Origin: Nitrospirota bacterium | Lineage (GTDB): Bacteria > Nitrospirota > Nitrospiria > 2-01-FULL-66-17 | Assembly: GCA_049325335.1 (NCBI GenBank) | Contig: JBMOMC010000011.1 | Span: forward strand, 52,926 to 116,925 | Length of the DNA stretch: 64,000 nt | Direction of reading: 5' to 3' | Shown here: one piece after another, positions 11,082 through 30,382 of the stretch | How the letters are laid out: every line of letters begins with the position of its first letter | How positions within the stretch are numbered: the stretch's first letter is position 1 | Translations under genes and position numbers: made by a program | Notes under the pieces: generated by a model | The model's database searches: none | Told to the model about the DNA's origin: nothing | The model's input: only the letters and a program-made list of their open reading frames with translations

Positions 11082-11106
11082 CTGCTGATACTCCTGTAGT
11101 TCGTGA

Positions 11107-11132
11107 AACCCGCGGCGGTGCCAAAAGTTTCA
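11107..11132 (-). promoter_or_regulatory. Putative ECF sigma promoter TGAAAC-N16-GGTT
   Basis: Minus strand TGAAACTTTTggcaccgccgcgGGTT, overlapping the sigma stop codon and upstream of the anti-sigma. Confidence 0.65.
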
Positions 11133-11717: not shown

Positions 11718-11852
11718 GCGCCGCAAGCATAGGCATCCGACCGGTTGGTTGCAAGTCGGGCACGATCCAGGCTACTGAAAGAGCCCGCCTACTGGCTGGT
11801 CACGTCTCAGTCGTGGTAGGCTGTCGGCGCCGGTCTAACCCAGGAGGACACT

Positions 11853-12294: not shown

Positions 12295-12807
12295 TCACCC
12301 TTGTACTGGCTGCCGTAATGCCTTGATCGCGGCCAAAATCTCCGATGGCCGCGGGGGGCAGCCGGGAATTCTCACGTCCACCGGGATGTGCCGCTCCACC
12401 GGTCCGGTCACCGCGTAACTGCCCTTGAACGCGCCGCAGTCGATGGCGCAGTCGCCGAGCGCGATCACGAGCTTGGGGTCGGGGGTCGATCGATGCGCGT
12501 CTTTGAGCGCCCGCTCCATGTTGCAGGTCACCGGGCCCGTGACCACCAAGGCGTCTGCGTGGCGGGGCGAGGCCGCGATGTGGATGCCGAAACGCTCCGC
12601 GTCGTAGACCGAATTGACGAGCGCGTTCATCTCCATCTCGCAGGCGTTGCACGACCCGGTGTCCACTTCGCGGATCGTGAGCGACCGGCGGAAGCAGGCC
12701 GCCTTCCGCGAGGCATCGTCGGAAATCACGGGGAGGGGCGCGGTCGGTTCGGGATGCCGTCCCGTCACGACACCGGTTTTTAGACTTTTCTTGATGATTC
12801 GGAACAT
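12295..12807 (-). CDS. hyfI: Ehr/hydrogenase-4 small subunit (HyfI/NuoB-like, one [4Fe-4S] cluster)
   Basis: GSCNAC, SPRHAD, GDCA and GCPP motifs. Confidence 0.9.
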   Translation of the reverse strand: MFRIIKKSLKTGVVTGRHPEPTAPLPVISDDASRKAACFRRSLTIREVDTGSCNACEMEMNALVNSVYDAERFGIHIAASPRHADALVVTGPVTCNMERALKDAHRSTPDPKLVIALGDCAIDCGAFKGSYAVTGPVERHIPVDVRIPGCPPRPSEILAAIKALRQPVQG

Positions 12808-12822
12808 CGTGTAATTCCCCCC

Positions 12823-14415
12823 CTATAGATCGGTTCCTGCGTACGATAAATTAAAGCTTTTGTTTATTAATGGAAAATCCGGAATGATGTTGCCCAGCAC
12901 AGCGAACTGGATCGCGGGCCAGTTCACGAACGAGGGGTCGCGGACTTTGCAGCGGTGGATCGCGCCGTGCTCGCCGGCCATGACGTAGTAGAGGATTTCC
13001 CCGCGCCAGCCCTCGACCGCTCCCAGCCCCCATTGTCCGGTCTCGGGTGGTCCAGGGATCGCGGTGCGGACCTCGCTCGCCGGAATACGCTCGCACACCT
13101 GCCGAATGAGTCGGATCGACTCCGTCACCTCGTCGATCCGTACGCGCACCCGCGCGCGGACGTCGCCGTAGTTGAAGACCGGTACGCGAACGCCGAGATC
13201 GGAATATGCGGCGAACGGGCGGTCGCGTCGTACGTCGCGGTCGATGTTGGACGCGCGTCCCACCACGCCCATCACTCCGTGGTCCCAGGCAATTTGTTCG
13301 GACAGGATGCCCGTACTTTCCAGCCGATCAGTGAGCGAGGCGTTGCCAAACACGATGGCGGCCAATTCACCGAAGTCTTTGTCGGTCGCGTCCGCCTCAC
13401 GGCACACCTCGTCGAGTCGGGATTGGTTTAGGTCGATCGCGGTGCCGCCCACCACATTCACGCCGCGCAGGAAGCGACTTCCGGTGAGCCGATCGGCAAG
13501 CTGCATGAGGCGTTCTTTCATCCGACCGGCATGCGCCAGCGCAAGGGCGTAGGCCGCATCATTGCAGATCGCGCCCACGTCTCCGATGTGGTTGTGGAGC
13601 CGCTCCAACTCCAGAAATAACGTACGGAGGTAGCGCGCGCGCGGCGGGACCGTGATCTCCATCAACCGTTCCACGGCCTCGCAGTATGCCAGCGTGTGGC
13701 CGAACGAGGTGTCGCCGGAAACCTTTTCCGCAAGCGACGCACCGTCCACCAGGGGCCGGTTCTCGAAGAGCTTCTCCACGCCGCGGTGCTTCCAGAAGTG
13801 GCGCAGCTCAAGTTGCATAATGGGCTCACCCGCGACCGAAAACCGGAAATGGCCCGGCTCAATGATCCCGGCGTGGATGGGGCCCACCGGGACCTCGAAC
13901 ACGCCTTCGCCCTCAATTCGGCGGAAATGGTATTCCCCCTGCTGACGTCCCATGACGTGATCCCAGGCAAAGTCTTTCTTCAACGGGTGGGTGCCCCTGG
14001 GCCAGTGCTCGTGGCGGACGAGGCGGCGAAGGTCGGGGTGCCCTTCCGGAATCAGACCGAATAGGTCGCGGATCTCGCGCTCGTACCACTTTGCGGCGTG
14101 GATGTGGGGCGTGATCGAGGGGAAGATCCGATCGCCGTCGGAAAGCTCGGTCAGCAGAATAAGCCACGCGCCGCGACCGGCGAGCGAGAACAGGTAGTAG
14201 ATCTGGGTACGGGCCGCCATCGGCCGGAGATCCACGGCCCACTGTAGCGACAGCGTGCCGCGAAACTCCGCCGTGCTGTGGATATAGTGCGCCACCGTCG
14301 GAATGGCCTCTTTGGCCATGCTGACGATAGGGATATCTTGAACGCGACCGACACCCACGATCTGGTGTTTAAAGGTCGTGACGATTTGTTGTGCTGCCAC
14401 GTCCGCGTCATTCAC
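12823..14415 (-). CDS. hyfG: Ehr large subunit (HyfG/NuoCD-like) lacking NiFe-binding cysteines
   Basis: WYERE, VGPIHAGIIEPGHFRF and EGWRGE motifs. The L1 site reads KVSGDT and the C-terminus reads DFPLINKSFNLSYAGTDL; neither has CxxC. Confidence 0.9.
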   Translation of the reverse strand: MNDADVAAQQIVTTFKHQIVGVGRVQDIPIVSMAKEAIPTVAHYIHSTAEFRGTLSLQWAVDLRPMAARTQIYYLFSLAGRGAWLILLTELSDGDRIFPSITPHIHAAKWYEREIRDLFGLIPEGHPDLRRLVRHEHWPRGTHPLKKDFAWDHVMGRQQGEYHFRRIEGEGVFEVPVGPIHAGIIEPGHFRFSVAGEPIMQLELRHFWKHRGVEKLFENRPLVDGASLAEKVSGDTSFGHTLAYCEAVERLMEITVPPRARYLRTLFLELERLHNHIGDVGAICNDAAYALALAHAGRMKERLMQLADRLTGSRFLRGVNVVGGTAIDLNQSRLDEVCREADATDKDFGELAAIVFGNASLTDRLESTGILSEQIAWDHGVMGVVGRASNIDRDVRRDRPFAAYSDLGVRVPVFNYGDVRARVRVRIDEVTESIRLIRQVCERIPASEVRTAIPGPPETGQWGLGAVEGWRGEILYYVMAGEHGAIHRCKVRDPSFVNWPAIQFAVLGNIIPDFPLINKSFNLSYAGTDL

Positions 14416-14423
14416 CGGTCACC

Positions 14424-15953
14424 TCACTTCACTGTAATGATTGCGACCGCCATACCCATCAAGTCCCTGAGAGGCCAGGGAATCGTCACCCCCAACACCA
14501 CGAGTGCGCCGATGCTGAGAGCGAAGGGAAGATGGCTCAGTCCGAGTTTCTCGCCTCGCGGGACCCCTTCGGGGGGATCTCCCGAGACCATGCCCGCCAC
14601 TCGGTACATAAACCCTCCAAACACCACGACCGCGATGACTAGGAAGCCGGTGACGAGCGCGAGGTTGCGGACTTCGTCCGCGATCATGATGGTCAGAAAT
14701 CGACCGAGATGAATGGAGTCGGCGGCATAGACGCGCGTCGCGAGAGCCGCCAGGATCGAGAATTCGCTGACGAACATGGCCAGCGGCGGCATGCCCACCA
14801 GCGCCAGGGCTGCGATCAAGAAGGCGGTGGCGGTCCAGGGTTGAGCCTTGAGCAGCCCACGCACGCCGTCGATATCCCGCGTCCCGAACCGAACGTGGAT
14901 ATTCCCGGCGGCAAAGAACGCGAGGGATTTGGCGACAGCGTGGTTGATCAGGTGGAACAGGGCCCCGAAGGTTCCGACCCCGCCGACTCCGAACCCGATG
15001 GCCGCAATACCCATGTGCTCGATGCTTGAATACGCGAACAACCGCTTATAGTCACGCTGAACGAGAATGAACAGCGCGGAGACCCCGAAGGAAAGGAACC
15101 CGAACGTGATCAAAAGATTACCGGCATAGCCCGGGGAGACGACGGCATCGACGACAAGCTTGCTCCTGAGAATGGCGTAGAAGGCGACGGTTTCCAAGAC
15201 GCCGGCCAGCATCGCGGTGACCGGCGCCGGGGCTTCCCCGTAGGCTTCGGGGACCCAGGTGTGCATGGGAACCAGGCCGAGCTTGGTCCCATACCCGACC
15301 AGGATGAACACGAACGCCAGCTTGACGACGTGCGGATCGAGTTGACCGGCGACCGCCAACAATTCGGTGATATTGAGCGCCGCGCTGACGTCTCCCAAGG
15401 CCCGGACGGAGGATGAGTACATCAAGACGGTTCCGAACAGGGCCAGGGCGATTCCCACCGAACAGAGGATCAAGTATTTCCACCCGGCTTCGAGCGAGGC
15501 CTTCCGTCTGAAGAAGTTGATCAGAAACGTGGTCGCCAGGGTGGTGGCCTCGATCGCCACCCAGAGAATACCGAGGCTGTTGGCCAGGGTGGCCAAGATC
15601 ATGGCGAACATAAAGAGATGAAAGAGCGAGAAATACCGCTTCATCATGCGAGGCGTGATGGTTCCTCGAGCCAGGTAATGATCGAAGTACTTCCAGGCGT
15701 AAAGAGAGGAGGTGAAGCCAATCGTTGTAATGACAAGGAGGACGACGCTCGCCAGAGCATCCACATGCACGAGATCATCGTAAGCAAGGAAACTCCCATC
15801 GCGAAGAACCCTGGACATTAAGAGGGCTTGAGCGCCTCCCAGTGAAATCATCGCGGCAAAATTGATCGCGTACAACGCTTTCGGAGTTCGAAGGCCCAGG
15901 CTGAGCAGACTCGCGGCGAGAGGGATCGTGAGGAGCAAGGTGACGGAGATCAT
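14424..15953 (-). CDS. hyfF: Antiporter-like membrane subunit (HyfF paralog 2)
   Basis: WVAIEATT, EAGWKY, GYGTKLGLVPMHTW and KRLFAYSSIEHMG motifs. Confidence 0.88.
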   Translation of the reverse strand: MISVTLLLTIPLAASLLSLGLRTPKALYAINFAAMISLGGAQALLMSRVLRDGSFLAYDDLVHVDALASVVLLVITTIGFTSSLYAWKYFDHYLARGTITPRMMKRYFSLFHLFMFAMILATLANSLGILWVAIEATTLATTFLINFFRRKASLEAGWKYLILCSVGIALALFGTVLMYSSSVRALGDVSAALNITELLAVAGQLDPHVVKLAFVFILVGYGTKLGLVPMHTWVPEAYGEAPAPVTAMLAGVLETVAFYAILRSKLVVDAVVSPGYAGNLLITFGFLSFGVSALFILVQRDYKRLFAYSSIEHMGIAAIGFGVGGVGTFGALFHLINHAVAKSLAFFAAGNIHVRFGTRDIDGVRGLLKAQPWTATAFLIAALALVGMPPLAMFVSEFSILAALATRVYAADSIHLGRFLTIMIADEVRNLALVTGFLVIAVVVFGGFMYRVAGMVSGDPPEGVPRGEKLGLSHLPFALSIGALVVLGVTIPWPLRDLMGMAVAIITVK

Positions 15954-17446
15954 GGAATCTTCACCGCGACGTCTGCGCCAAAGAGACCGACTATGGGGAT
16001 GAACAGCTCCCGCAGGAAACCGGGCATGTACAACCCGAGCGAGCTCAGGGCCACGATGTTGACGATCAAGGCCGAGGTGGTGAAACGCCGAGTCGAGCCA
16101 GCCAACACGTGGCCGGGTCCAAGAGATTCGCCCAGGATCATCGGCAACGCCTGAGCGAGCAACGTGGCAAACGCGAGGGCCAAAAGGCCCAAGAAGACGG
16201 CGGCAATCCAGGGATACCGCTGATACGCCGCGGTGGCGATCAGCACTTCGCTGATGAACAGCCCGAACGGCGGCATTCCCGCGAGGGCGATGGCCGCCGT
16301 CAGCATCCCACCCCCGGTGGCCGGGTCCTGCCTGAGCAGGCCGGTGACCCGTTCCGTCACTTTGTGCCCGTGTCGCAGCAAGACCAAGCCCGCGGCGTAA
16401 AACGCGGTGGACTTCGCCAGAGCGTGGTTGAGCATGTGGAAGAAGCCGCCGAACACGCCGGCCGGTCCACCGATGCCGAACCCGACGAGGGCGATCCCCA
16501 TGTGCTCGATGCTCGAGTACGCGAAGAGCCGCTTGTAGTCGCGCTGGATCAGCATGAAGACCGCGGCAACGGCGATCGACAAGAGGCCGAGTCCGATCAC
16601 GATCGGCGCGGTGAAGGCCGCGCCCGCCGCCTGGTCCACGATGTTCTTCAGCCGCAGCACCGCATACAGGGCGATGTTCAGCATGAGACCCGAGAGCATG
16701 GCGCTGATGGGCGTGGGTGCTTCGGCGTGAGCATCAGGCAACCAGGTGTGCATGGGGGACACGCCGGCTTTGGTCCCATACCCGATCAAGACAAAGACGA
16801 AGGCCAGTTTGAGGGTGGTCGGGTCCAGCGTCGGCGCGGCCCGGTGGAGCGCGCTCCAGCTCAAGGCTTCCATGCTCACGCCGAGCACGCGCTCGGCGGC
16901 GTAGTAGACCAGCACCGTGCCGAATAACGCGAGCGCGATACCGATGAAGCTCAAGATGATGTATTTCCATCCCGCTTCCAGGGCGGCCTTGGTCCGATCG
17001 AACCCCACGAGCAGCGCTGCGGCAAGCGTGGAACCTTCGATCGCGATCCACATGAGGGCGATATTGTCGAGGGTGGTGGCCAACAACATCGCACCGAGGT
17101 ACAGGTTCAGCAGGCCAAAGAACAGCCGGTACCGCACGTGCCCCAGATGCCCGCGCGTGAGTTCCTCACCCATGTACCCCAGGGCGTAGATCAGCCCCGT
17201 CCCGCCCACGACGGCCAGCATGAGGGTCATGAAGGCGCCGAGCGTGTCGACACGCAGGAGGTGTCCAACCACGATGTCGTTTCCGGAGGCGACAGGCCCA
17301 ACCACGAGCCCCATCGCGACCAGAAGAACGGCCACGAGGGTGCCTTGAAGCCATTGCATCGCTTCTCTGGTGTGCGTCACGAGACTCAACGGGCCTGCAA
17401 GGAGCGGAGCAAGCGTGAGGACGACCAAGGCGACGCCCGCGGTCAT
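15950..17446 (-). CDS. hyfF: Antiporter-like membrane subunit (HyfF paralog 1)
   Basis: WIAIEGST, EAGWKY, GYGTKAG..PMHTWLPDAH and KRLFAYSSIEHMG motifs. Confidence 0.88.
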   Translation of the reverse strand: MTAGVALVVLTLAPLLAGPLSLVTHTREAMQWLQGTLVAVLLVAMGLVVGPVASGNDIVVGHLLRVDTLGAFMTLMLAVVGGTGLIYALGYMGEELTRGHLGHVRYRLFFGLLNLYLGAMLLATTLDNIALMWIAIEGSTLAAALLVGFDRTKAALEAGWKYIILSFIGIALALFGTVLVYYAAERVLGVSMEALSWSALHRAAPTLDPTTLKLAFVFVLIGYGTKAGVSPMHTWLPDAHAEAPTPISAMLSGLMLNIALYAVLRLKNIVDQAAGAAFTAPIVIGLGLLSIAVAAVFMLIQRDYKRLFAYSSIEHMGIALVGFGIGGPAGVFGGFFHMLNHALAKSTAFYAAGLVLLRHGHKVTERVTGLLRQDPATGGGMLTAAIALAGMPPFGLFISEVLIATAAYQRYPWIAAVFLGLLALAFATLLAQALPMILGESLGPGHVLAGSTRRFTTSALIVNIVALSSLGLYMPGFLRELFIPIVGLFGADVAVKIP

Positions 17447-18111
17447 TCCTTCAATCCGGTGAGTTTGCTCACATCCACGCTGTCGAAGGCATCTTGGAGT
17501 CGATGGGTGTAGATTCCGATAATGAGGCCGGCCACCAGCACGTCGAAGAACACGCCGAGTTCCACGATCAGCGGCATCCCGTACGCGGCGGCGACCGCCC
17601 CAAGGAACAGACCGTTCTCAACCATCAAGAACCCCACGACCTGTGTGATGGCCTTTTTCCGAGCGATCATGGTGAAGAACCCGATCAGCACGATCGCGAG
17701 CGCCACGGCCAGGGAATCTTTGGTGAGAAGAAACCCCAAACTGGCCACGGGTTCGGTGACGGAAAACGCCAGGATCACCAGCGCGCCGCAGATCAAGAGA
17801 GAAGGAGGAATGTTGATCACGAAGGCCACTTCGCGCTGGACGTTCAGTCGCTCGATGACCTTCTTCAAGATGATCGGGATGATGATGGCCTTGATCAGAA
17901 TCGTGAGCCCTGCGGCGACGTAGATGTGGTGAATGCCGGTCAAGAAGGCCACCAGGGCCGCCGTCACCGCCAAAAACACGGACTGGACGGCGAAGAGATC
18001 CACGCACGCGGAGAGCCGGCGTTGCGCCACGATGGCGAATGAGGTGACCAACAGCATCATGGAGCACACATTCACCAACTGGGAGCCGAGGTCGGCAGGC
18101 ACGGTGGTCAT
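17443..18111 (-). CDS. hyfE: HyfE-like membrane subunit
   Basis: ATGA overlap with the hyfC stop; ENG and PLIVELGVFFD motifs. Confidence 0.88.
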   Translation of the reverse strand: MTTVPADLGSQLVNVCSMMLLVTSFAIVAQRRLSACVDLFAVQSVFLAVTAALVAFLTGIHHIYVAAGLTILIKAIIIPIILKKVIERLNVQREVAFVINIPPSLLICGALVILAFSVTEPVASLGFLLTKDSLAVALAIVLIGFFTMIARKKAITQVVGFLMVENGLFLGAVAAAYGMPLIVELGVFFDVLVAGLIIGIYTHRLQDAFDSVDVSKLTGLKE

Positions 18112-19064
18112 GGTGTTCCTCGCAAAATGTAGAAAAACACGAGGGCCAACAGCGAAAGGATGAACGCGACCCCCAGTAGATCCGTGACCCGAAACAGCCG
18201 AAGTTTGGCGAACATGGATTCGATCAGGCCCACGAGCAGTGCAAGCGCGGAGACTTTGGCCAGCCAGACGCCCAGCCCGATCGCCATACTGGCCGGATCG
18301 GGCTCGATGGCGATTCCCCATGGGGCGAAGATGTTGCTCACGAGGGTCAGCATCAGAAGCAGTTTCATGGCGGCGGCCCACTCGACCAAAGCCAGGTATC
18401 GACCCGAGTATTCAAGCACCATGGCCTCGTGGATCATGGTGAGTTCCAGGTGCGTGGCTGGATTGTCCACGGGAACACGGCCGGTTTCAGCCAGGGTGAC
18501 GATGAACAGGGCGGCCAGCGCCATGAGATGGGGGGGCGGATCGGTGACGATGCCCTGAAGCAGGGCCGTGTTGTGGACGATCGTGCTCACGTTCGTGGAG
18601 CCGGCCGTGAGGCCCACCGCAAAAATGGAAAGCATCATGGCGGGCTCGGTCAACGAGAAGACGATGGCCTCGCGGCTGCTCCCCATTCCCCCGAAGGCCG
18701 AGCCGGCGTCCATACCCGCCAACATGAGAAAGAACGTTCCCACGGTCAACAACGACACCACGGTGATGACATCGCCGGCAAAGCTCAACGGCACTCGCGA
18801 AAGAAAAATGGGTACCAACAAGCTGGCCGCCAGCGTGGAGCCGAACAGAATGTAGGGAGTCGCCGTGAAGATCCACGACGTGGTGGTTGAGACGACCACG
18901 CCTTTTTTCAACAGCTTGGTCAGGTCCGAGTAGGGTTGCAGCACACTCGCCCCCCGCCGGCATTGCAGGCGAGCCTTGACCTTGCGGATGAGCCCCACCA
19001 CGAAGGGCGAGACGGCGAGGATGATGACGGTCTGCATGAGGGCGATAGCGGCTGATTGAAGCAT
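18108..19064 (-). CDS. hyfC: HyfC/NuoH-like membrane subunit
   Basis: RKVKARLQCRRG, QPYSDL, GMGSSRE and ETGRVPVDNPATHLELTMIHEAMVLEYSG motifs. Confidence 0.92.
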   Translation of the reverse strand: MLQSAAIALMQTVIILAVSPFVVGLIRKVKARLQCRRGASVLQPYSDLTKLLKKGVVVSTTTSWIFTATPYILFGSTLAASLLVPIFLSRVPLSFAGDVITVVSLLTVGTFFLMLAGMDAGSAFGGMGSSREAIVFSLTEPAMMLSIFAVGLTAGSTNVSTIVHNTALLQGIVTDPPPHLMALAALFIVTLAETGRVPVDNPATHLELTMIHEAMVLEYSGRYLALVEWAAAMKLLLMLTLVSNIFAPWGIAIEPDPASMAIGLGVWLAKVSALALLVGLIESMFAKLRLFRVTDLLGVAFILSLLALVFFYILRGTP

Positions 19065-19084
19065 CGTTATTTACCGTCCGCCTC

Positions 19085-19112
19085 GTAGGGGTTCGACATG
19101 TCGAACCCCTAC
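19085..19112. repeat. GTAG-type REP, perfect 28-bp palindrome inside the hyf operon
   Basis: GTAGGGGTTCGACATGTCGAACCCCTAC; contains the hyfB TAG stop. Confidence 0.8.
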
Positions 19113-21157
19113 CCAACCCATAAGAGCAACGCAATCAGCGTCAGAAAGATGTACGCGAGATACAAGTGCAGGCTTCCGGTCTGCACGATGCGGAGACGGT
19201 TGGCCAGCATGTTGAAGACCCAGACCACGGGATCGTAGAGGTATCGCTGAAACGTGGGTTCAATGTGGACCTCAAACCGCATCCGTTTAGCGAAGTAGCG
19301 GGACTCCTCCAGCATGTCCTTTTCAACCTTGACGGTCGGTCGGTAGATCGTGCTGAAGACCTGACGGATCGGCTGGGCAAATCCGGTGGCCGTGTACTCC
19401 ATTCGCGGCTTGAGATTGATGCCGCAACCCCACGTCTTATAGAACCGTCGGTTCAGTTTTCCCGCGATGAGTACCACGCCGAGGAGGACCAACGGAATGG
19501 TAATCGCCAGGAGGAGCATCAGCACGGGTGTGGAGATGCTGGCAAATTCCGGCCCCATGGGCGTGAGCGCCCACCCGCCTCCGGAGACCACGCTCTGAGC
19601 GAGCTGGGCGTCCGTAAATGAAGCGGTCACTTTGTCGATCATCGGGATGACCGCCATCGGAGCGAGCCCGAGCGCCACACACGCGGCGGCGAGCGCCCCC
19701 ATCCCGATGCGCATGGGCATCGGAACCTCCCGGGCATGCTGGGCGTGGTGGCTGCGCGGCATGGCTAAAAACGAGATCCCGAACGCCTTGGCGAAACAGG
19801 CGACGGCCAGAGCCCCTGTCAGCGCCAGCATGGCCGCGCCGATGGGAATCAAGATCTTCATCAGGGGATCGGGAAGCATGAAACTGAGGAAGAGGCTCTG
19901 AAACGTCAACCATTCACTGACGAACCCATTGGTGGGGGGGAGGGCCGAGATCGAAATCGCTCCTACGAGAAAAAAGAACGCGGTCCACGGCATGGTGCGG
20001 ATCAGCCCGCCGTATTCCTCCATGTTCCTCGTATGGGTGGCGTACAGTATGGACCCGGCTCCCATGAACAGGAGTCCCTTGAACATGGCGTGGTTCAGGG
20101 TGTGATACAGCGCGGCGAGCAGCCCGAGCGCGGCGAGATGAGACAGGCCGTACGATTGGAAGATCATGCCGGCGCCGATTCCCAAGAGAATGATGCCGAT
20201 ATTCTCAACGCTGTGGTAGGCGAGCAGACTCTTGAGGTCGTGTTCCATCAGGGCGTACATGACCCCTAAGAGGGCCGAAACGGCTCCGATGGCCAGTACG
20301 GCAAAGCCCCACCACCAGGGGAATGCGCCGCCGAGAAAGTCAAAGTACACCCTGATCAGCCCGTATATGGCGGTTTTGATCATGACGCCCGACATAAGGG
20401 CTGAAATATGGGACGGGGCGGCGGGGTGGGCGTAAGGCAACCATACGTGTAAGGGCACGATACCGGCCTTGGCGCCGAAGCCGATCAAGGCAGCCAGGAA
20501 AACGACCGTCCGGAAGCCCTCGGGGAGGGGTTCGCCGGGATGGCGAAACGAATCGAACGCAAAGCTGCCGGTCTGCTGGTAGAAGACCAGATAGGCGATC
20601 AGAATGAATGCGGTGCCCACGTGGGTCATCACCAGATAGAAGAACCCGGCATATTTGGTTTCGGCCTTCTCGTGTTCGGTGACCACCAGTAGGTACGAGA
20701 CGAGCGACATGATTTCCCATACGATGAGGAAGAAGAATCCGTCGTCCGCCGTGACGACGAGGACCATCGAGAGCAGAAAGCCGTGATACAGAACGCCTAA
20801 GGCACCGATCGAGTGGCGCCCGTAGAACTCGCGGACGTACCCGAGCGCGTAGATCGAGACGGCGACGCCCGAGACGGAAATGATGAGGACAAAGAAGGCC
20901 GACAATGGGTCGAGACGGAGTTGGATGTGCAGGAGGGGAATGGTCGAAGGAAGCGAGAAGGCGAGGGGTTCGGACGCCAGCAACCCGCCAATGCCGATGA
21001 GCACACCCGCCGTGCAGGCCACCACGGCGGCGCCGTGGGTGAGGGCGTTCTTGACCCGATCACTTGACGGCCAGAGCATAGGAACCAGCGCACCGGCGAG
21101 ATGCGCGGTCACAAGACTGAAGAGGGCCGGACGAACGATTAATGCAGGATCAAACAC
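19109..21157 (-). CDS. hyfB: HyfB-like antiporter subunit
   Basis: WEIMS, KAGIVPLHVWLPYAHPAAPS, LLAYHSVENIG and TWGCG motifs. Confidence 0.92.
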   Translation of the reverse strand: MFDPALIVRPALFSLVTAHLAGALVPMLWPSSDRVKNALTHGAAVVACTAGVLIGIGGLLASEPLAFSLPSTIPLLHIQLRLDPLSAFFVLIISVSGVAVSIYALGYVREFYGRHSIGALGVLYHGFLLSMVLVVTADDGFFFLIVWEIMSLVSYLLVVTEHEKAETKYAGFFYLVMTHVGTAFILIAYLVFYQQTGSFAFDSFRHPGEPLPEGFRTVVFLAALIGFGAKAGIVPLHVWLPYAHPAAPSHISALMSGVMIKTAIYGLIRVYFDFLGGAFPWWWGFAVLAIGAVSALLGVMYALMEHDLKSLLAYHSVENIGIILLGIGAGMIFQSYGLSHLAALGLLAALYHTLNHAMFKGLLFMGAGSILYATHTRNMEEYGGLIRTMPWTAFFFLVGAISISALPPTNGFVSEWLTFQSLFLSFMLPDPLMKILIPIGAAMLALTGALAVACFAKAFGISFLAMPRSHHAQHAREVPMPMRIGMGALAAACVALGLAPMAVIPMIDKVTASFTDAQLAQSVVSGGGWALTPMGPEFASISTPVLMLLLAITIPLVLLGVVLIAGKLNRRFYKTWGCGINLKPRMEYTATGFAQPIRQVFSTIYRPTVKVEKDMLEESRYFAKRMRFEVHIEPTFQRYLYDPVVWVFNMLANRLRIVQTGSLHLYLAYIFLTLIALLLWVG

Positions 21158-21327
21158 GAAAGTGCCACACGCTGCAGTTCCTCGTTCTTCAATGACCGTG
21201 TACGACGTGGTGACCCGCGCAGGAGAGTTCCTGGCGCAAACTGTCTTGCATCATAGGACAAAGCGCGCGGAGAACACAATGGCTGTGAATGCGTCGTGTC
21301 GTGGAAGTGGGGTAGGCGCGTGATCCC

Positions 21328-21939
21328 TCATGAAGACTTCGACCGCTTCGCGGATGAGGTCTTGAGTCGCGTTACGGTGTCCGCGAGCTGCGAGATCGTC
21401 GCGGCAGTGAGGTCGCGGATGGTGATATTGGCCTCTTCATCGCCGTGGAACGTGCAGAGCGCGATGGTATAGCAATTCGTCCCGCCACGGATAATTTTCA
21501 GCGCGATGTTCGACTGGTGGCAGTGTACGCCGACGAAGACGCACACGTCGATGCGGTTGTGCCAAATCGTGATATTGGGGTGGTTAGGATTAATTTCGAC
21601 CTCAGGATTGAGCTTGGGATACTTCGGCCGATAATCGGCCATGGGAATCACGTGCGCGGGAATGGACTCGGCCAGCTTCTTGACGGCCTTCGCTTCGGCC
21701 GACGAGCGTTCGGACCAGTGCCAGAGGACCAGCGGACCGGGGAAGATAGTAGGGTGCTTGGCGGCGATCAACCGCCGAGCGGCGATTTCCATGCCTTCCG
21801 CCACCGGAACCGGTGACCCCTCGACCAAGATCTGGCCCGCGTCGGGGGTCATGACGCCCATCGCGGCTGCCGCGGGAGGGAGAAATCCCTCTGGACCTGG
21901 AAGCACCCGGTATTTCGATTGTAGCTGTTGCCGTTCCAT
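21328..21939 (-). CDS. Delta-subunit-like protein of five-subunit 2-oxoacid:ferredoxin oxidoreductases (PorD/ForD type), paralog 1
   Basis: PTIFPGPLVLW, DYRPKYPKLNPEVEINPNHPNITIWHN, GVHCHQ and GTNCYTIALC motifs; AGGAGG RBS before ATG 21939. Confidence 0.75.
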   Translation of the reverse strand: MERQQLQSKYRVLPGPEGFLPPAAAAMGVMTPDAGQILVEGSPVPVAEGMEIAARRLIAAKHPTIFPGPLVLWHWSERSSAEAKAVKKLAESIPAHVIPMADYRPKYPKLNPEVEINPNHPNITIWHNRIDVCVFVGVHCHQSNIALKIIRGGTNCYTIALCTFHGDEEANITIRDLTAATISQLADTVTRLKTSSAKRSKSS

Positions 21940-22014
21940 GTGTGACGTCCTCCTTTCGGTTGTGAAGAGGTTCACAGGGCTAAAACCTTGTCGGAAGTCG
22001 GTGATGCCGGGTGG

Positions 22015-22857
22015 TCACGTCCATGCCACGCGGTGTTCATCTAACACGGCTTCAAGGATCGCCGTATCTTCCCACTGTTCGCGGGAGAGATTGGAGCCAT
22101 CCGTGAACGCGTACGTCGGGCGCTCCACCTGGTAGAGGAGGCCGACGCACGGCACGCTGTCCGCGAAGGCGGCCGACAGCGCGTGGGTCAGGTTCCCGGC
22201 GTCGTGGGTTGATCCGATTTCCTTCACGAGTGGGATGCCGTTTGATCCGGTTTCTCCCTCTCCGTGGTGAAACGTTGGGCAGGGCGAGAGCATATTCACC
22301 ACCGAAAATCCCGGATGGTTGAGGGCCCGCGCGATTAACGTGTGCGCTTCATCCGGTCGCCATGTCGCTGTCTGAGCGACGAACGTCGCTCCGGCCGCGA
22401 GCAGGACGGCGAGGGCATTTAAGGGGTGGGCGCCCTCGCGGACGTTCGTCGGAGACGGCTGTCCTCTCGTCATGCCGTAGGACTGGTTGTCCATAATCAG
22501 ATAGGTGAGTCGGGGATTCTTGCGGGCGGTGTGGATGAGATGATTCCCGCCGATCGAGAAGGCGTCGCCGTCTCCACCCGCTACCACGACGCGGAGCCCC
22601 GGGTTCGCCGCCTTTACGCCGAGGGCTAAGGGGAGCGCGCGACCGTGCGCGCCGTGAATCGCGTAGCTCCGAAGCTGAAACGTGATCAGGCTGGAACAGC
22701 CCACTCCGGTGACGACGACCGTATCGGCCGGTCGCGCGCCGGACGCCGCCAGGGCGCGGCACAGCGCGTCAAAGATGTCGGCGTGTCCGCATCCTTGACA
22801 CCAGCGGGCGTCCCTGCCGGTCGAAAACGTGAGACGAGCATGGACATCGGTGGGCAT
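22015..22857 (-). CDS. korB: 2-oxoacid:ferredoxin oxidoreductase beta subunit (TPP-binding)
   Basis: WCQGCG, GVGCSS, HGRALP, GDGD..N, YGMTRGQPSPT and SPCPTF motifs. Confidence 0.9.
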   Translation of the reverse strand: MPTDVHARLTFSTGRDARWCQGCGHADIFDALCRALAASGARPADTVVVTGVGCSSLITFQLRSYAIHGAHGRALPLALGVKAANPGLRVVVAGGDGDAFSIGGNHLIHTARKNPRLTYLIMDNQSYGMTRGQPSPTNVREGAHPLNALAVLLAAGATFVAQTATWRPDEAHTLIARALNHPGFSVVNMLSPCPTFHHGEGETGSNGIPLVKEIGSTHDAGNLTHALSAAFADSVPCVGLLYQVERPTYAFTDGSNLSREQWEDTAILEAVLDEHRVAWT

Positions 22858-22865
22858 CGGGTCTC

Positions 22866-24641
22866 CTACTGCGTGAGGTCTTCTCTTCCGAAAATATCCC
22901 AGGCCGTCAACGGGACTCCACGATACCGGGTTACCAGCTTTGGTTTGATCGCGGTTGAGGCGGCGATCACGCGGGCGAATTGGCCTTGGCGATTGCCTTC
23001 CACGACCACGACCTGGCCAACGGACCGTGCGAAGTCCGTCAGCGTCTTAACCGGAGGCGGCCACAACACCTTCGGATACAGCGCCGCGACGGGCATGCCG
23101 ATCGCGTTGAAACGCTGCACCGCTTCCCGCACCGCGCCCTGCGTCGACCCCCAACTGACCAGGCCCACCGCGGCCGCGGGAGGACCCTCGCGCTCTACCG
23201 GGGGACACTCGTCCTCGAGCCGCAGGAGCTTTTGAAAGCGTTTATCCGTCATGGCTTCGTGGATGTCGGGTGCGTCCGAGGGGAACGCAAGCCCCGTGTG
23301 TTCGAGTCCGGTCGCCGCGTATTCACCGCCGGCCTGTCCGGGGACGGACATGGGCGAAATCCCGGAGTCGGTCAGCCGATAGCGGGAATAGGGCCCCTGT
23401 CCGGGTAGGAATGGCACACGATCGACGACCGCGATTGCCGCGAGATTCGGCCGCGCAATCGTGTGTTCCCGAAGAGCCAGCGACGCGTCGCTCAACAGAA
23501 TCACGGGGAGTTGATATCGCTCGGCGAGATTGAATGCCTCGACGGTGAGGTGGACGCAATCGTGGACGTCTCCCGGCGCGAGGACGATCCTGGGTGCGTC
23601 GCCGTGTGCCCCGCAGGTGGCTGACAGCAGGTCCGCTTGTTCGTACTTGGTGGGAAGGCCGGTGCTGGCTCCCGCGCGCTGGATGTCGACGACCACGACT
23701 GGGATCTCGGCCATCGATGCGTACCCGATCAGTTCTTGCATCAGGTCGAGTCCCGGGCCGGATGTGCCGGTCATGGCTTTGACGCCTGCCAACGACGCAC
23801 CGATGGCCACGCCGAGCGAGGCCATCCCGTCCTCCGCCGCGCATATCTTCCCGCCGAGGAGAGGAAGATGAACGGCGAGCCATTCCGCGACCGACGTCGC
23901 CGGCGTAATCGGGTAATGGGCATACAACCGGCAGCCGGCCATCAGCGCCCCGAGGCCGATCGCCTCGTTGCCGGTGAGAAGAACGGCTTCATCACGCGCC
24001 GCGCCGACCGGGGCCAAGAAGCGGTCGCGTTTCACCAGATGCTCCTTCGCGTACCGCGCGCCGCCGGCCAATGCAGCGAGGTTCGAGGACACCACGTGGT
24101 GCCCCTTAGTTGCCAGCCGTTTTCGCAACGAGGTTTCGATGTTGGCGAAGGAGAACCCGAACAATTCCGAGAGAACCCCTAATGCCACGACATTTTTCGC
24201 GACCGGCGACCCGGCGGCTTCGGCGAGCGCGCTCATGGGCACGGGATAGGACACGACACCGGGGGGGTACGCTCGGGGCGCCGCGTCGTGTACACGGTCG
24301 TAGAGCACGACATCTCCCGCGGTCAGATCTTCTCGGTGGGCGCGATGGGCTTCGTGATCGAGCACGACCCACACATCGACGCGGTCCCCTTCCGTCAGGA
24401 GGGTTGAGGGCGAGACCCGGAGCTGGTACATCGTGTCCCCACCGCGTACTTCCGCGGAGAAGGTGGCTCCGGATAGGACCTCCAGTCCGGACAATGCGGC
24501 GGCTTCGGTCAGCATCCGGCCGGCGGTCAGGATCCCATCGCCGCCCACACCCACAAATCTGACGATAAGGCTCTCGTCAAGCTGACTTAGTCGGCGCGAC
24601 ATCAGGGGCCACGCGGCGGACGAGAGGAGGTTTTCGGGCAT
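22866..24641 (-). CDS. korA: 2-oxoacid:ferredoxin oxidoreductase alpha subunit (gamma-alpha fusion)
   Basis: GVGGDG, AEVRGG, YPITPA, TSGPG and QRAGASTGLPTKYEQADL motifs; TGATG coupling with the upstream TPR gene. Confidence 0.9.
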   Translation of the reverse strand: MPENLLSSAAWPLMSRRLSQLDESLIVRFVGVGGDGILTAGRMLTEAAALSGLEVLSGATFSAEVRGGDTMYQLRVSPSTLLTEGDRVDVWVVLDHEAHRAHREDLTAGDVVLYDRVHDAAPRAYPPGVVSYPVPMSALAEAAGSPVAKNVVALGVLSELFGFSFANIETSLRKRLATKGHHVVSSNLAALAGGARYAKEHLVKRDRFLAPVGAARDEAVLLTGNEAIGLGALMAGCRLYAHYPITPATSVAEWLAVHLPLLGGKICAAEDGMASLGVAIGASLAGVKAMTGTSGPGLDLMQELIGYASMAEIPVVVVDIQRAGASTGLPTKYEQADLLSATCGAHGDAPRIVLAPGDVHDCVHLTVEAFNLAERYQLPVILLSDASLALREHTIARPNLAAIAVVDRVPFLPGQGPYSRYRLTDSGISPMSVPGQAGGEYAATGLEHTGLAFPSDAPDIHEAMTDKRFQKLLRLEDECPPVEREGPPAAAVGLVSWGSTQGAVREAVQRFNAIGMPVAALYPKVLWPPPVKTLTDFARSVGQVVVVEGNRQGQFARVIAASTAIKPKLVTRYRGVPLTAWDIFGREDLTQ

Positions 24642-24910
24642 CAGGATACGGTTTCGCGACCAAGCGAGCGGGCCTGAACCAGCGCCTCTCGCGCGGCCAA
24701 GTGATTCGGATCCATCCGGAGGATTTCTTGGAGCACCGTGACGGCCTCGTCGCTGCGGCGGAGGTCCAGCAGGAAGAGCCCACACTTCAATCGAAGGTCG
24801 ATGTCACGAGGCTTGACGGCGAGTTGTCGGCGATACCAACCGATCAGCCACGCCACCTCGTCGGGAGAAATCGTCGCGCTGTCCTTCTTGGCAATCATGA
24901 CCAACTCCAT
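24641..24910 (-). CDS. Small TPR-like protein
   Basis: TPR-like pattern LKCGLFLLDLRRSDEAVTVLQEILRMDPNHLAAREAL; translationally coupled to korA. Confidence 0.7.
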   Translation of the reverse strand: MELVMIAKKDSATISPDEVAWLIGWYRRQLAVKPRDIDLRLKCGLFLLDLRRSDEAVTVLQEILRMDPNHLAAREALVQARSLGRETVS

Positions 24911-24961
24911 GTTCTGTTCCGGTTCGTCGTCTCGTCGTGTCGTTATTGAGAGGGCCCGCAG

Positions 24962-25708
24962 TCACTCCGCATGTTCATCCAGCCCGACGGCCAGTTCATG
25001 GTCCCACCGTTCCATGGTGGCTTGGACCTCTTGCCGAGCTTGTGCACGATGCTTGGCTCGTGCAGCCAATTCGGCCTTTCCCGCGTCCGTGAGCGCCCAC
25101 GGAACAACTTTCCCACTGTTACGCCGCGCGACAATGGCTTTCCGCAGACGGGCGAGCTTGTCGAGGTCGACCCATCCGAGACTGGCGATGGCATCCTCGT
25201 GGGTATCGTTGGCGCACAGCGCGATCGTGTAACAGTTCGTCCCCGCGCGGATCATCTTCATCATCACGTTTACAAAGTGACAATGAGCGTCCATGAACAG
25301 GCCCACTTCGATCTTGTTGTGCCAGATCGTCAGGTTGGGATGACAGGGATTGATCACCACTTCAGGGTCGATCTTGGGATAGATCGGCCGGTAATCGGGC
25401 ATGGGGATGATGTTGATTCCCGGGATTTCGGCGATGAGCTCGAGAGCCGCTGCCGCACGTACTCGCGTCGCTTCGTTCCACCCCCACAGCAGCAACGGAC
25501 CGGGGAAGAACGTGGGGTTGCGTCTCGTGAGCAACTGTTCCGCGATCTGCGGGATCAATTCCTCATCCGATACCACGTCGCCTTCCAACCACCCTTGGCC
25601 CGGGACCGGGAATCGGGTCGCCAAGGCCGCGGCCGCTGCCGGAAGCAGCTCGCCTGGTCCGGGTTGAATGGGGCCTCTCCGTCTTCCTCGGGCAGACTTA
25701 ACGGGCAT
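24962..25708 (-). CDS. Delta-subunit-like protein (PorD/ForD type), paralog 2
   Basis: PTFFPGPLLLW, PMPDYRPIYPKIDPEVVINPCHPNLTIWHN, AHCH and GTNCYTIALC motifs; AAGGAG RBS before ATG 25708. Confidence 0.75.
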   Translation of the reverse strand: MPVKSARGRRRGPIQPGPGELLPAAAAALATRFPVPGQGWLEGDVVSDEELIPQIAEQLLTRRNPTFFPGPLLLWGWNEATRVRAAAALELIAEIPGINIIPMPDYRPIYPKIDPEVVINPCHPNLTIWHNKIEVGLFMDAHCHFVNVMMKMIRAGTNCYTIALCANDTHEDAIASLGWVDLDKLARLRKAIVARRNSGKVVPWALTDAGKAELAARAKHRAQARQEVQATMERWDHELAVGLDEHAE

Positions 25709-25778
25709 CGACAACTCCTTTGCTGTGGAGACGTGCTGGTAAAAGCATCGCGCTCGCAGGTCACATCGCGCCCAAACT

Positions 25779-25794
25779 TGCATCGACCATGCCA
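25779..25794 (-). promoter_or_regulatory. Sigma54 -24/-12 promoter for the oxidoreductase/Ehr genes
   Basis: Minus strand TGGCATGGTCGATGCA (GG-N10-GC), about 70 nt upstream of ATG 25708. Confidence 0.75.
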
Positions 25795-25977
25795 GATAGA
25801 TGAATCCGGTGAATCGAGCGAGGCGACGAGTTTCATGGGGTCCGACGACAAGCGCCCATGCGGAGGTCGTCGCAAGAAGATGCAAACTCTGCGGTACAAG
25901 AAAAAACTGCACCGGGTTCATCGCCGGACACTGGATCTTCCGGACGTGTTATAATGCAGCACTTCCACGTTGAATTG

Positions 25978-27348
25978 ATGTTTCGTCCCAGTCCGCAACA
26001 GCCGCTACTTGGGAATTTCCCTGCGCGGCTCATCATCCCGGTTCTCGTCATCCTTGCGGCGGTTGTCGCCATCGTGGCCTTCCTCGGCCTCGAACACGAG
26101 CGGCGAATCTTCCAAGACGTCACCAACCAGGCGGCGGGCGTTGAGTCGGCCCGCACTCGCCTCATCCAAACGACGATCGTCCTGTTTCTCTTCGCGGGCT
26201 TGGGCATCTCGGCGCTTCTGACCTATCAAAGTGATCAATCGACCAAACGGACGCTGGAACGGGTCAAAGGGCTGGCTCGGAATATCCTCCACAGCATTCC
26301 AAGCGGTGTGTTGACGGTAGATCAGTCGGGACGCGTGACGGCCATCAATCCAATGGCTGAGCGAATCTTGGGTGTCACCGCGGAATCGACACTCGGTTTG
26401 GACCTTGACCAGCGGTTCGGCGTCGACGACCCCGTGTATCAGTGCATGCGCCAAGCCTTGGCTGATGCCGAGTTCGTTCGGAATTTCGATATTCGGTATC
26501 CGCCGCAGGACGTCCGCTGGATTCGGCTCACGACGTCCCCACTCACGGATCACGAACATGGGAGAGCCGGCGTGGTGATCCTGCTCCAGGACGTCACCGA
26601 CCTCTTGGTGTTGGAAGACCAACTCCGACGCGGCGAGAAACTCTCGGCGCTCCATACGCTCTCGGCAGGCGTGGCTCACGAGATCCGCAACCCGTTGAGT
26701 GCGATCGATCTCAATCTGCATCTCTTACAGGAAGAGATCGGCGGCGAACCCATGAATACCGGGGCGGTCCAAGGCTACTCGGACATCCTCAATGCCGAGG
26801 TCAGACGGATCAGAGGCATTTTGGATAACTTTCTGCGCTTTGCGCGGCCCACGTCGCTGGTGTTGAGCGACGTCAGGCTGGATGGGATTGCGCGACATAT
26901 CGGTGAGCTCGTCCGGTACGAAGCTCAAGAGCACGGCGTTGAAATTCTCATCGATTTCCCCGACGATCTCCCCGTTGTGTCGGGCGACGAGACTCAATTG
27001 GGCCAGGTGTTTCTCAACCTGATGATCAATGCGGTTCAGGCCATGCCACAGGGAGGGACGCTGCGGATATCGGGCCTGCAGCGGATCGCCGACGTAAGAA
27101 CCGTCGTGGAGATCTCGGTCCGCGACACGGGAATCGGTATCAACAAGGCCGACCTCACGAAAGTCTTTGAGCCGTTCTTCAGCACCAAGGCGGACGGGAA
27201 CGGTCTCGGGCTCGCCATCGCGTACCGTATCGTTGAAGATCATGGTGGAACCATTCGGGTGACCAGTGAACCGGGGGCGGGAACCACGTTTGTATTGTCA
27301 TTCCCAACCGTTCCCGCAGCAGATGAACAGACGATCCGGCAGACATGA
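25978..27348 (+). CDS. NtrB-like sensor histidine kinase (2 TM, PAS, HisKA, HATPase)
   Basis: AHEIRNPL, NLMINAVQAM, DTGIG, FEPFFSTK and GLGL motifs; start codon uncertain (25954 or 25978). Confidence 0.92.
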   Translation: MFRPSPQQPLLGNFPARLIIPVLVILAAVVAIVAFLGLEHERRIFQDVTNQAAGVESARTRLIQTTIVLFLFAGLGISALLTYQSDQSTKRTLERVKGLARNILHSIPSGVLTVDQSGRVTAINPMAERILGVTAESTLGLDLDQRFGVDDPVYQCMRQALADAEFVRNFDIRYPPQDVRWIRLTTSPLTDHEHGRAGVVILLQDVTDLLVLEDQLRRGEKLSALHTLSAGVAHEIRNPLSAIDLNLHLLQEEIGGEPMNTGAVQGYSDILNAEVRRIRGILDNFLRFARPTSLVLSDVRLDGIARHIGELVRYEAQEHGVEILIDFPDDLPVVSGDETQLGQVFLNLMINAVQAMPQGGTLRISGLQRIADVRTVVEISVRDTGIGINKADLTKVFEPFFSTKADGNGLGLAIAYRIVEDHGGTIRVTSEPGAGTTFVLSFPTVPAADEQTIRQT

Positions 27349-28703
27349 CGGACAAACCGCGAATCCTTGTGGTGGACGACGAGCCCAACATCCGCAGCGC
27401 GATCGTCACCATTCTCGACCGTTCAGGGTATGCCGTTGAGGGCGCGGCTGGCCCCAGCGAGGCGGACCGCATCCTGAGCCAGGCGGACTGCCACGTGGTG
27501 CTGCTGGATTTACGCATGCCGGGGGCGAACGGGCTGGACTGCCTGCGCCGGTGGAAAGCTGAGCACCCGCACACCGAGATCATCGTCATTACCGCGTTTG
27601 GCTCCGTGGAAACCGCGGTCGAGGCCATGCGGCTGGGCGCCTACGATTACCTCTCAAAGCCGATCGACCGAGACCGGCTCCCCATTGTGGTGAAAAAGGC
27701 GGTCGAACGCCATCTTTTGAGCACCGAGAACACTGTGCTCAAGGAACGGCTGGCGCGCCGGGATGGTTACGGCCCCTTTATCGGCCACAGTTCCGCGATG
27801 CTCCGCGTGTTCGAACTGATCGATCTGGTGGCGCCCAGCGATGCCACCGTCTTGATCGTGGGGGAAAGCGGCGTGGGGAAGGAGCGGGTCGCACGCGCGA
27901 TCTACGAACGGGGGCCGCGCGCCAACGGGCCGTTCATCGCGGTCAACTGCGGGGCGTTACCGGAGGCGCTTCAGGAAAGCGAACTCTTCGGGTATGAAAA
28001 GGGCGCGTTTACGGGTGCAACGACCACCAAACCAGGCCGCTTCGAACTCGCGCACGAGGGGGTCCTCTTTCTGGACGAAGTTGGGGAGATGAGCGCGAAG
28101 ACCCAGGTCGACTTCCTCCGGGTGCTCGAGACGAGAGAATTCCGACGCGTCGGCGGGACCCGTCTCGTCAAGGTGGACGTACGGATCGTGGCGGCTACGA
28201 ATCGCGACCTCAAGAAAGCCGTTGACGAGGGACGGTTTCGAGAAGACCTCTACTACCGGTTCAATGTGGTACCGATTCGCGTCCCTCCGCTTCGTGAACG
28301 CCCCGACGATCTCCCGCTGTTGATTGAGGCATTCCTTGACGAATTCGCCGTCACGTACCGGCGCGAGCGTCAGGTGCTCGCGCCGGAAACGCTGGCGCGG
28401 TTCGTGGCCTATTCGTGGCCGGGAAACATTCGAGAACTCCGGAATCTCCTCGAACGTCTGGTCCTCACGAGTCGGGAAGCGGTGATCGGCCCCACGGACC
28501 TCCCGCCGGAGATGTTGAGCGAGGCTCCCGCACGGGCGCAGGGAAATCGGTTGGCGGGCAAGACGCTTCGCGATCTTGAAAAGGACGCCATCATCGAGAC
28601 GCTTCGCGACATCACGTCTCACCGGGAGAAGGCGGCGAAGATCCTCGGCATTAGTCCCCGCGCGCTCCAGTACAAGATCAAGGATTACGGGATCGACGTG
28701 TAA
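27345..28703 (+). CDS. Sigma54-dependent response regulator (NtrC family)
   Basis: Receiver domain; GESGVGKE, GAFTGA, FLDEVGE and WPGNIREL motifs; C-terminal Fis-type HTH. Confidence 0.95.
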   Translation: MTDKPRILVVDDEPNIRSAIVTILDRSGYAVEGAAGPSEADRILSQADCHVVLLDLRMPGANGLDCLRRWKAEHPHTEIIVITAFGSVETAVEAMRLGAYDYLSKPIDRDRLPIVVKKAVERHLLSTENTVLKERLARRDGYGPFIGHSSAMLRVFELIDLVAPSDATVLIVGESGVGKERVARAIYERGPRANGPFIAVNCGALPEALQESELFGYEKGAFTGATTTKPGRFELAHEGVLFLDEVGEMSAKTQVDFLRVLETREFRRVGGTRLVKVDVRIVAATNRDLKKAVDEGRFREDLYYRFNVVPIRVPPLRERPDDLPLLIEAFLDEFAVTYRRERQVLAPETLARFVAYSWPGNIRELRNLLERLVLTSREAVIGPTDLPPEMLSEAPARAQGNRLAGKTLRDLEKDAIIETLRDITSHREKAAKILGISPRALQYKIKDYGIDV

Positions 28704-30156: not shown

Positions 30157-30275
30157 GACTCCCTCCGCGTAACGGTCGAAGCGTGATCGCGTCGTGCGAC
30201 GCGCGGAGCCTACCGCACGTCGGCGGTAAAACTCAAGAGGTCACGGCGGGGATCCACTCCTGAAAACGTTTTGAG

Positions 30276-30354: not shown

Positions 30355-30382
30355 AAACGTCTACGGGGTTGGCCTCCACTAG

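Follow-up and report, generated by a model that had tools for sequence, protein, structure and literature searches.

A candidate sigma-54-controlled gene cluster of a Nitrospirota bacterium joins an Ehr complex to PorD/ForD paralogs and an altered KorAB

We analyzed a stretch of 64,000 nucleotides from a Nitrospirota bacterium (GenBank assembly GCA_049325335.1, contig JBMOMC010000011.1, positions 52,926 to 116,925 of the forward strand), referred to below as the window, in which an accessory block precedes the genes of an Ehr complex. Twelve minus-strand genes follow one another in the order delta1, TPR, korA, korB, delta2, hyfB, hyfC, hyfE, hyfF, hyfF, hyfG, and hyfI; gene calls and domain matches agree with the initial annotation on this order and orientation. 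Our best reading, to which we give a probability of about 0.4, is that the cluster is an inducible unit of the reductive tricarboxylic acid (rTCA) cycle, in which Ehr would spend an ion gradient on supplying inorganic carbon to pyruvate:ferredoxin and 2-oxoglutarate:ferredoxin oxidoreductases (POR and OGOR) retuned by the delta subunits. The gene content suggests that the cluster would support CO2 fixation rather than 2-oxoacid oxidation. A literature search that covered few subscription papers found no description of the delta pair or of a pseudo-KorAB with Ehr, and the cluster is apparently a real, conserved, and undescribed variant of a known complex.

PMC12342949 reports Ehr in about half of the Nitrospirales genomes and calls its function unknown, a view shared by PMC10284858. 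The role of the delta subunit in five-subunit 2-oxoacid:ferredoxin oxidoreductases (OFORs) is also stated to be unknown (PMC13768988, PMC10052474). The cluster joins these two open questions, the function of Ehr and the role of the fifth subunit of the O2-tolerant rTCA carboxylases, by a concrete and testable link. Below, L, G, g, and f denote our handles for loci, genomes, genera, and families, the host genome being G000.

Delta paralogs and an altered KorAB

The delta1 gene (24962..25708, minus strand) encodes 248 amino acids with the motif CANDTHEDA, and delta2 (21328..21939, minus strand) encodes 203 amino acids with the motif CTFHGDEEA. Both match PF02552 and are placed in the ForD and PorD clades, respectively, with a changed C-x3-GHEDA loop and a location outside por and for operons. 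The initial annotation had called them "delta-like"; delta paralogs they are, not of the ferredoxin type but paralogs of the ForD and PorD of five-subunit enzymes encoded elsewhere. Indeed, the host carries two further delta genes plus five-subunit por and for genes elsewhere in its genome. The host PorD lies outside the por operon (contig C2, 318847-324500), 28 kb from porA; two genes, citrate-lyase-like by their sequence, follow it at a distance of about 2 kb.

Among 73 deltas surveyed, 40 had the C-x3-GHEDA loop, 20 had GD[DE]EA, and 13 had other variants. The 40 GHEDA deltas were housekeeping, solitary, or DAB-flanking copies, including a pair between DAB and Ehr in G019, and all 33 motif-variant deltas belonged to the accessory block or its detached pairs. 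The His-to-Asp change was also seen in a branch of family f22 that groups with housekeeping copies, and the distribution of the loop change suggests that it arose convergently. In a core-domain tree, delta1 grouped with the ForD of its own lineage, and a single clade of all 13 delta1 proteins, a group defined after the first tree was seen, was rejected by the approximately unbiased (AU) test (p-AU, 1.5e-5). The C-terminal tail of delta1 also resembles that of the host's housekeeping ForD. Together, the lineage-specific placement and the matching tails fit a subunit shaped to bind the host For core. A delta at L316:263-865, beside forE, combined a ForD-like N-terminal half with a delta2-like C-terminal half and is possibly a misassembly or a recombinant.

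The predicted model of delta2 (pLDDT 83) adopts a DHS-like NAD/FAD-binding fold and matches the carbon monoxide dehydrogenase (CODH) epsilon subunit and the middle domain of thiamine diphosphate (ThDP) enzymes, with a Z score of about 11 and a root mean square deviation of 2.6-3.3 over 123-126 residues; no PDB sequence matched a delta at E values up to 1. In a DHS-like fold, the altered loop would presumably sit at the pocket for the adenine nucleotide; the paralogs may therefore differ from the housekeeping copies in ligand or regulation. A role of delta as a carbonic anhydrase found no support in the fold searches, whose listed matches were CODH epsilon and DHS-like domains with no carbonic anhydrase among them. 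Databases name the delta genes CO dehydrogenase beta subunit, and RefSeq names porD "carbon monoxide dehydrogenase"; because of this naming, the "CODH" reported beside hyf in "Ca. N. nitrosa" (PMC5596200) is probably such a delta gene.

Between the deltas lie korA (22866..24641, minus strand), encoding a gamma-alpha fusion of 591 amino acids that scores over the TIGR03710 cutoff, and korB (22015..22857, minus strand), encoding 280 amino acids. KorA keeps Thr246 of YPITP and the substrate residue Arg322, and KorB keeps the GDGD ThDP motif and the four proximal [4Fe-4S] Cys, all features of active two-subunit OFORs. Gly272 of KorA, however, replaces the second Glu of AEDE, the ThDP-activating residue, which the proteins of three PDB alignments all have and which is retained in PorA and ForA of the host. 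Among the best 120 of 4114 KorA homologs, the Glu was missing in 35 (Pro in 18, Gly in 8, Ala in 8, and Val in 1). These 35 form one clade (FastTree support, 100), which takes in the window's protein and five other Ehr-linked copies that we added, genomic context having been read for a minority of the 35, and all 85 proteins outside it retain the Glu. Moreover, the window's KorB has Leu at the position of Arg63 of PDB 6N2N chain B, the basic residue after GxGCS, and Leu or Met stood there in 6 of 6 Ehr-linked copies. This Arg is the 2-oxoglutarate residue of OGOR, and its replacement sets these proteins apart from 2-oxoglutarate-specific enzymes.

In family f3, which appears to be Nitrospiraceae, we found a pseudo-KorA of 470-540 amino acids that is homologous over its full length (probability, 100%; E, 1e-61) and devoid of the YPITP and QR motifs, and korB was not found in any f3 locus read. 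For korA and korB, the ratio of nonsynonymous to synonymous substitution rates (dN/dS) was 0.17-0.27, and two close pairs of pseudo-KorA had 0.29-0.37, compared with 0.10-0.14 for hyfB and 0.09-0.18 for the deltas in close pairs, showing that selection on KorAB is relaxed, not absent. KorAB of the window is likely inactive, and we read it as a putative noncatalytic scaffold or cofactor-holding relic, reduced or lost in later lineages. The cluster would thereby document the stepwise conversion of a KorAB into a pseudoenzyme.

The Ehr core and its neighborhood

The Ehr genes, all on the minus strand, encode the antiporter-like HyfB/EhrA (19109..21157, over the NF005086 cutoff), the NuoH-like HyfC (18108..19064), the membrane subunit HyfE (17443..18111), two antiporter-like HyfF copies (15950..17446 and 14424..15953), the NuoCD-like HyfG/EhrL (12823..14415), and the NuoB-like HyfI/EhrS (12295..12807). 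One cluster thus combines HyfB/C/E/F membrane subunits with NuoCD-like and NuoB-like subunits, as in Ehr complexes. The absence of a NiFe site noted in the initial annotation is borne out, both CxxC motifs being missing from HyfG. In an alignment to HycE (7Z0S), S233, T236, S524, and G527 stand at the four NiFe Cys positions, and KVSGDTSF and NLSYAG replace the Cys motifs, which separates HyfG from group 4 [NiFe]-hydrogenases. Ile185 and Gly234 occupy the positions of the complex I quinone His and Tyr, as judged against Thermus Nqo4 (2FUG chain 4), residues that bind quinone in NuoD.

HyfI keeps C53, C56, C120, and C150. HyfI proteins of other phyla often carry a fused HyfH-like dicluster domain, of which only the first ~20 residues remain here as an N-terminal stub; this deletion explains the electron link that the initial annotation found missing, and its observation that the cluster has no separate ferredoxin or HyfH/NuoI gene was confirmed among the cluster genes. 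Of 60 HyfI rows, 37 had the four Cys, including all Nitrospirota copies among those listed, and 22 had Asp at the third and fourth positions. HyfG pocket residues H181, H189, R272, D513, K519, S520, and S524 were invariant in 92 of 92 sequences, Asp-type Ehr included. With two iron-sulfur (FeS) ligands replaced in 22 of 60 HyfI and the HyfG pocket invariant, the conserved core function of Ehr may be independent of electron transfer. The Asp-type subclade (L083, L085-L090, L093-L102, L104, L105, L107, L109, and L110) has hyfI before hyfB and Thr or Asp for the first HyfI Cys, comes from records whose titles name Patescibacteria, Scalindua, Actinomycetota, and others, and is probably FeS free and nonredox, judging from these substitutions.

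The two gene blocks proved linked in relatives, as the initial annotation had proposed to check, and L028 and L152 show full synteny. Among 41 related genomes, 25 had a HyfG match and 5 had a KorA ortholog of more than 50% identity. From other genomes of the class we collected 40 Ehr loci. Five of them ended too early; the remaining 35 were informative in that they extended 4 kb or more upstream or showed a full delta, a criterion that slightly favors deltas. The deltas are better-conserved Ehr partners than KorB: of these 35 loci, 12 had a full-length delta and 4 had KorB. A korA piece was seen at 10 and the activator at 18. One further locus, in G011, had the accessory block downstream of Ehr. 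The f3 loci were mostly without deltas, one being kept in 3 of 21. The Nitrospiraceae versions include two proteins that are not in the window's cluster, one of 92 amino acids without a Pfam match (L134:6310-6588) and one of ~315 amino acids that is hydrophobic over an N-terminal stretch and contains a carboxypeptidase-regulatory-like domain (L134:8682-9632). Across 301 genomes of the phylum, deltas occurred in 112, HyfB in 158, and DabA in 106. In family f12, all 24 genomes had deltas and none had a HyfB match; its extra deltas, solitary GHEDA copies or fragments, were rejected as members of the module.

A metagenome scan by delta motif yielded 107 stretches, from which 5 duplicates were dropped; the motif open reading frame (ORF) was present in 100 of 101 loci. 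Downstream sequence of 3.5 kb or more was available for 24 of the GD[DE]EA deltas; of these, 15 were followed by Ehr and 2 by DabA instead, and 5 were Leptospirillum-type pairs with neither, so that Ehr followed in 15 of 19 once the Leptospirillum type is set aside. In the 36 loci readable for at least 1.7 kb upstream, pseudo-KorA was present in 32 and korB in 1; over all 100 loci, most of them short, korB was found in 4.

The initial annotation had tied Ehr to a 2-oxoacid:ferredoxin oxidoreductase, and Ehr is repeatedly linked to rTCA OFOR genes. In genus g65 (f22), a degenerate forD followed hyfI in 11 of 11 fetched loci and forA came next in 10, with hyfBCEFGI, the degenerate forD, and forABGE all on one strand (L373:5492-16958, L379-L389). 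G181 shares this layout and two more loci do not, and it was absent from 7 loci of three other genera. We call g65 "Leptospirillum-type" from the porGED order described in PMC2607301. The degenerate forD has lost its HCH residues and kept its C-terminal tail, suggesting that the tail anchors ForD to the For core. In L133 (G270), Ehr directly precedes a four-subunit-type POR with a Fer4-bearing gamma-delta fusion.

Links to carbon transporters were also seen. In f22, DAB operons (dabB, dabA, and PII) away from por and for are flanked by housekeeping-type deltas (L161, L369, and L370), L042 has the order dabB-dabA-PII-delta-delta-hyfB, and in L279 and L324 DabA follows the accessory block at the usual place of hyfB. 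The host DabA lies on contig C44, and the Ehr cluster has neither a DabA nor a CupA head, which distinguishes it from DAB and NDH-1MS systems. Mutual exclusion of Ehr and DAB was considered and rejected, as DabA occurs in 46 of 50 f3, 24 of 24 f12, and 27 of 28 f22 genomes. In several phyla, proteins with an EIIA domain of the phosphotransferase system precede Ehr (L077, L084, L116, and L067), and the L067 protein, encoded within the Ehr cluster, is a fusion of EIIA with a SulP-STAS transporter.

Promoters, regulators, and flanking genes

A sigma-54 promoter ahead of the cluster, predicted in the initial annotation, was located at 25794-25779 (minus strand, 25779..25794; TGGCATGGTCGATGCA), 86 bp upstream of delta1. 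This -24/-12 site is the top-scoring of three minus-strand matches across the cluster and is conserved in two relatives (L028 and L047) although the flanking sequence diverges. The divergent kinase and GAFTGA activator, also recognized before, both lie on the plus strand, and their domains were identified: the sensor kinase (25978..27348) has two hydrophobic N-terminal segments, PAS, HisKA, and HATPase, and the activator (27345..28703) has a receiver, an AAA+ domain with GAFTGA, and a Fis helix-turn-helix. Both features of a sigma-54 regulon, the -24/-12 site and an adjacent GAFTGA activator, are therefore present. An extended -10 element, TGTTATAAT, precedes the kinase (25947..25955, plus strand).

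The 170-bp gap between delta2 and hyfB contains a sigma-70-like element (21250..21279, minus strand; TTGTGT-18 bp-TATGAT), conserved as TTGTRT, 18 bp, TATGAT in 3 of 3 aligned genomes. It was not among the consensus-scan matches; as a presumed promoter, it may give the Ehr block transcription of its own. A terminator scan found 13 sites against 14.3 expected, none of them within this gap. In Nitrospira moscoviensis under steady-state growth, hyfB was expressed at 0.24 times the median, forD at 8.3 times, and porD at 4.0 times, corresponding to 24, 809, and 391 reads per kilobase per million (PMC6606698). With hyfB far below the median and forD and porD high, Ehr expression looks conditional.

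The gene between delta1 and korA encodes a small TPR protein of 89 amino acids (24641..24910, minus strand; TPR_14, E 2.8e-5), and its stop overlaps the korA start. Likely starts were corrected to 25708 (delta1), 24641 (korA), 21939 (delta2), 18111 (hyfE), and 25978 (kinase), and the longer ORFs 24962-25921, 22866-24785, and 17443-18381 were rejected for overextended starts. The cluster is flanked by ordinary-looking minus-strand genes, namely, an extracytoplasmic function sigma factor with DUF3106 and DUF4382/DUF5666 genes (6838-11726) and a dienelactone hydrolase, a cation diffusion facilitator transporter, msrQ, and msrP (29338-32961).

Competing readings and comparison with known systems

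In the reading that we prefer, the inducible rTCA unit, the kinase and the activator would switch on the delta genes together with Ehr via sigma-54, co-transcription and induction being presumed and carbon limitation a guess at the signal. We predict that delta1 and delta2 take the place of the housekeeping delta subunits in the host five-subunit OGOR and POR, respectively. Ehr would draw on the ion gradient to increase the supply of inorganic carbon, probably with no redox reaction involved; the chemistry may be located in the HyfG pocket, and any physical contact with the carboxylases is likewise presumed, KorAB serving as the putative noncatalytic scaffold or relic. Several observations weigh against this reading. 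The window's HyfI keeps all four Cys, KorA and KorB remain under purifying selection (dN/dS, 0.17-0.27), and the likely internal promoter ahead of hyfB makes a single operon less probable. No carbonic anhydrase was among the listed fold matches of the DHS-like delta. The g65 layout represents one inherited event, the DAB-for-Ehr swap of L279 and L324 comes from one assembly and is probably one event, and nearly all these autotrophs, the host included, already have DAB. No delta was seen in 22 of the 35 informative Ehr loci; in family f18, HyfB occurs in 51 of 64 genomes, deltas in 2, and DabA in 0. With deltas rare in f18 and absent from most f3 loci, Ehr is independent of the accessory block. 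Among 55 Ehr loci outside Nitrospirota, SulP is a neighbor in 3 and DabA in 1 (67 flanking proteins scanned, 65 of 91 picked plus 2 added, most of them unrelated), so a general rule joining Ehr to carbon transporters is weak and the neighbor count gives the carbon-supply reading modest support. Finally, Azorhizobium Hyq, of the same six-subunit type, is reported to recycle H2 in vivo (PMC3357923).

The main rival is reverse electron flow, in which the three antiporter-like subunits of Ehr would push electrons uphill via the HyfI cluster to ForE/PorE or free ferredoxin, these carriers replacing the deleted HyfH domain while the delta paralogs dock POR and OGOR. The four Cys of Nitrospirota HyfI, kept without the dicluster domain, are consistent with it, as are the position of Ehr before forABGE in g65 and before the Fer4-bearing four-subunit POR in L133 and the doubled HyfF, given the proposal that ferredoxin reduction by the Nitrospira 2M complex I is driven by its additional pumping subunits (PMC9381531). 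We nevertheless consider it rather unlikely, since no electron donor site is visible (HyfG has neither the NiFe Cys nor the quinone His or Tyr), the host already has two complex I clusters, hyfB is weakly expressed in nitrite-driven autotrophy (PMC6606698), and a large Ehr subclade is without most FeS ligands. A similarly doubtful explanation is that a sigma-54 regulon has gathered spare deltas, a KorAB in decay, and an Ehr that works by itself as an ion or pH device, with only the inducing condition in common. The stepwise loss of korB, korA, deltas, and TPR while Ehr stays intact, the promoter-like element ahead of hyfB, the detached GD[DE]EA pairs in f22, and a genome with the delta module and no HyfB match (G223) speak for such independence, whereas the joining of Ehr to OFOR genes in three different layouts, a pocket change shared by Ehr-linked deltas from separate branches, and purifying selection on all parts tested speak for a common function.

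The model of the initial annotation, an active KorAB oxidoreductase wired to Ehr and coupling 2-oxoacid oxidation to ion pumping or the reverse, would account for the tight co-location with full synteny in family f1, the retained ThDP and [4Fe-4S] motifs of KorB and Thr246 and Arg322 of KorA, and the dN/dS below 0.3. Glyoxylate carboligase, moreover, functions without the conserved Glu. The model is very unlikely in our view, because four different residues (G, P, A, and V) replace the Glu across the clade, the substrate Arg of KorB is lost, KorB was found at 4 of 35 other Ehr loci and in 1 versus 32 for pseudo-KorA of the 36 readable metagenomic loci, Nitrospiraceae have only a pseudo-KorA, and no dicluster ferredoxin domain on the KorAB or the Ehr side could serve as a bridge. 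The annotation was thus right in linking Ehr to rTCA oxidoreductases and probably wrong on the electron partner. A bolder extension of the inducible rTCA unit, which we regard as quite improbable, would make Ehr an unrecognized class of ion-gradient-driven CO2/bicarbonate machine that in Nitrospirota docks both rTCA carboxylases via exchangeable deltas as a membrane-anchored, carboxysome-free carbon-concentrating metabolon. Cultured Nitrospira and Leptospirillum can be used as test systems, with diagnostic residues to follow, and annotators of nitrifier genomes should be wary of labeling such genes CO dehydrogenase, hydrogenase-4, or active OGOR.

Like the Ehr of Nitrospirales and Geobacter and the Hyq of Azorhizobium, the window's complex has the hyfBCEFGI set, a NuoCD-like large subunit lacking the NiFe Cys, and a NuoB-like small subunit; an association of formate dehydrogenase with Ehr has been proposed (PMC6349859), and Geobacter Ehr (GSU0739-45) was higher on formate (PMC7894505). 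Unlike these, it has two HyfF copies and has lost the HyfH-like domain, and its genes are preceded by a block that encodes a pair of altered PorD/ForD paralogs, a TPR protein, and the impaired KorAB. Compared with the five-subunit POR and OGOR (PorABDEG and ForABDEG; Hydrogenobacter, Aquifex, and Nitrospira), delta1 and delta2 are 56% and 63% identical to the host ForD and PorD, respectively, and share PF02552 and the invariant HCH and Cys residues, but they sit with Ehr instead of alpha, beta, gamma, and epsilon genes and have a changed C-x3-GHEDA loop. For both KorA and KorB, the best match among structures is the two-subunit OGOR of Magnetococcus marinus (KorAB, 6N2N; E, 2e-148 and 5e-52), which shares their domain order and their FeS and ThDP motifs; the window's KorAB differs in Gly for the AEDE Glu and Leu for the beta Arg63, and its clade degrades to a korB-less pseudo-KorA. 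With DAB/MpsAB and cyanobacterial NDH-1MS the likeness is a functional analogy only: the Ehr cluster lacks a DabA or CupA homolog, and what it has in common with them is the combination of complex I-type membrane subunits with a soluble head near CO2-fixing genes.

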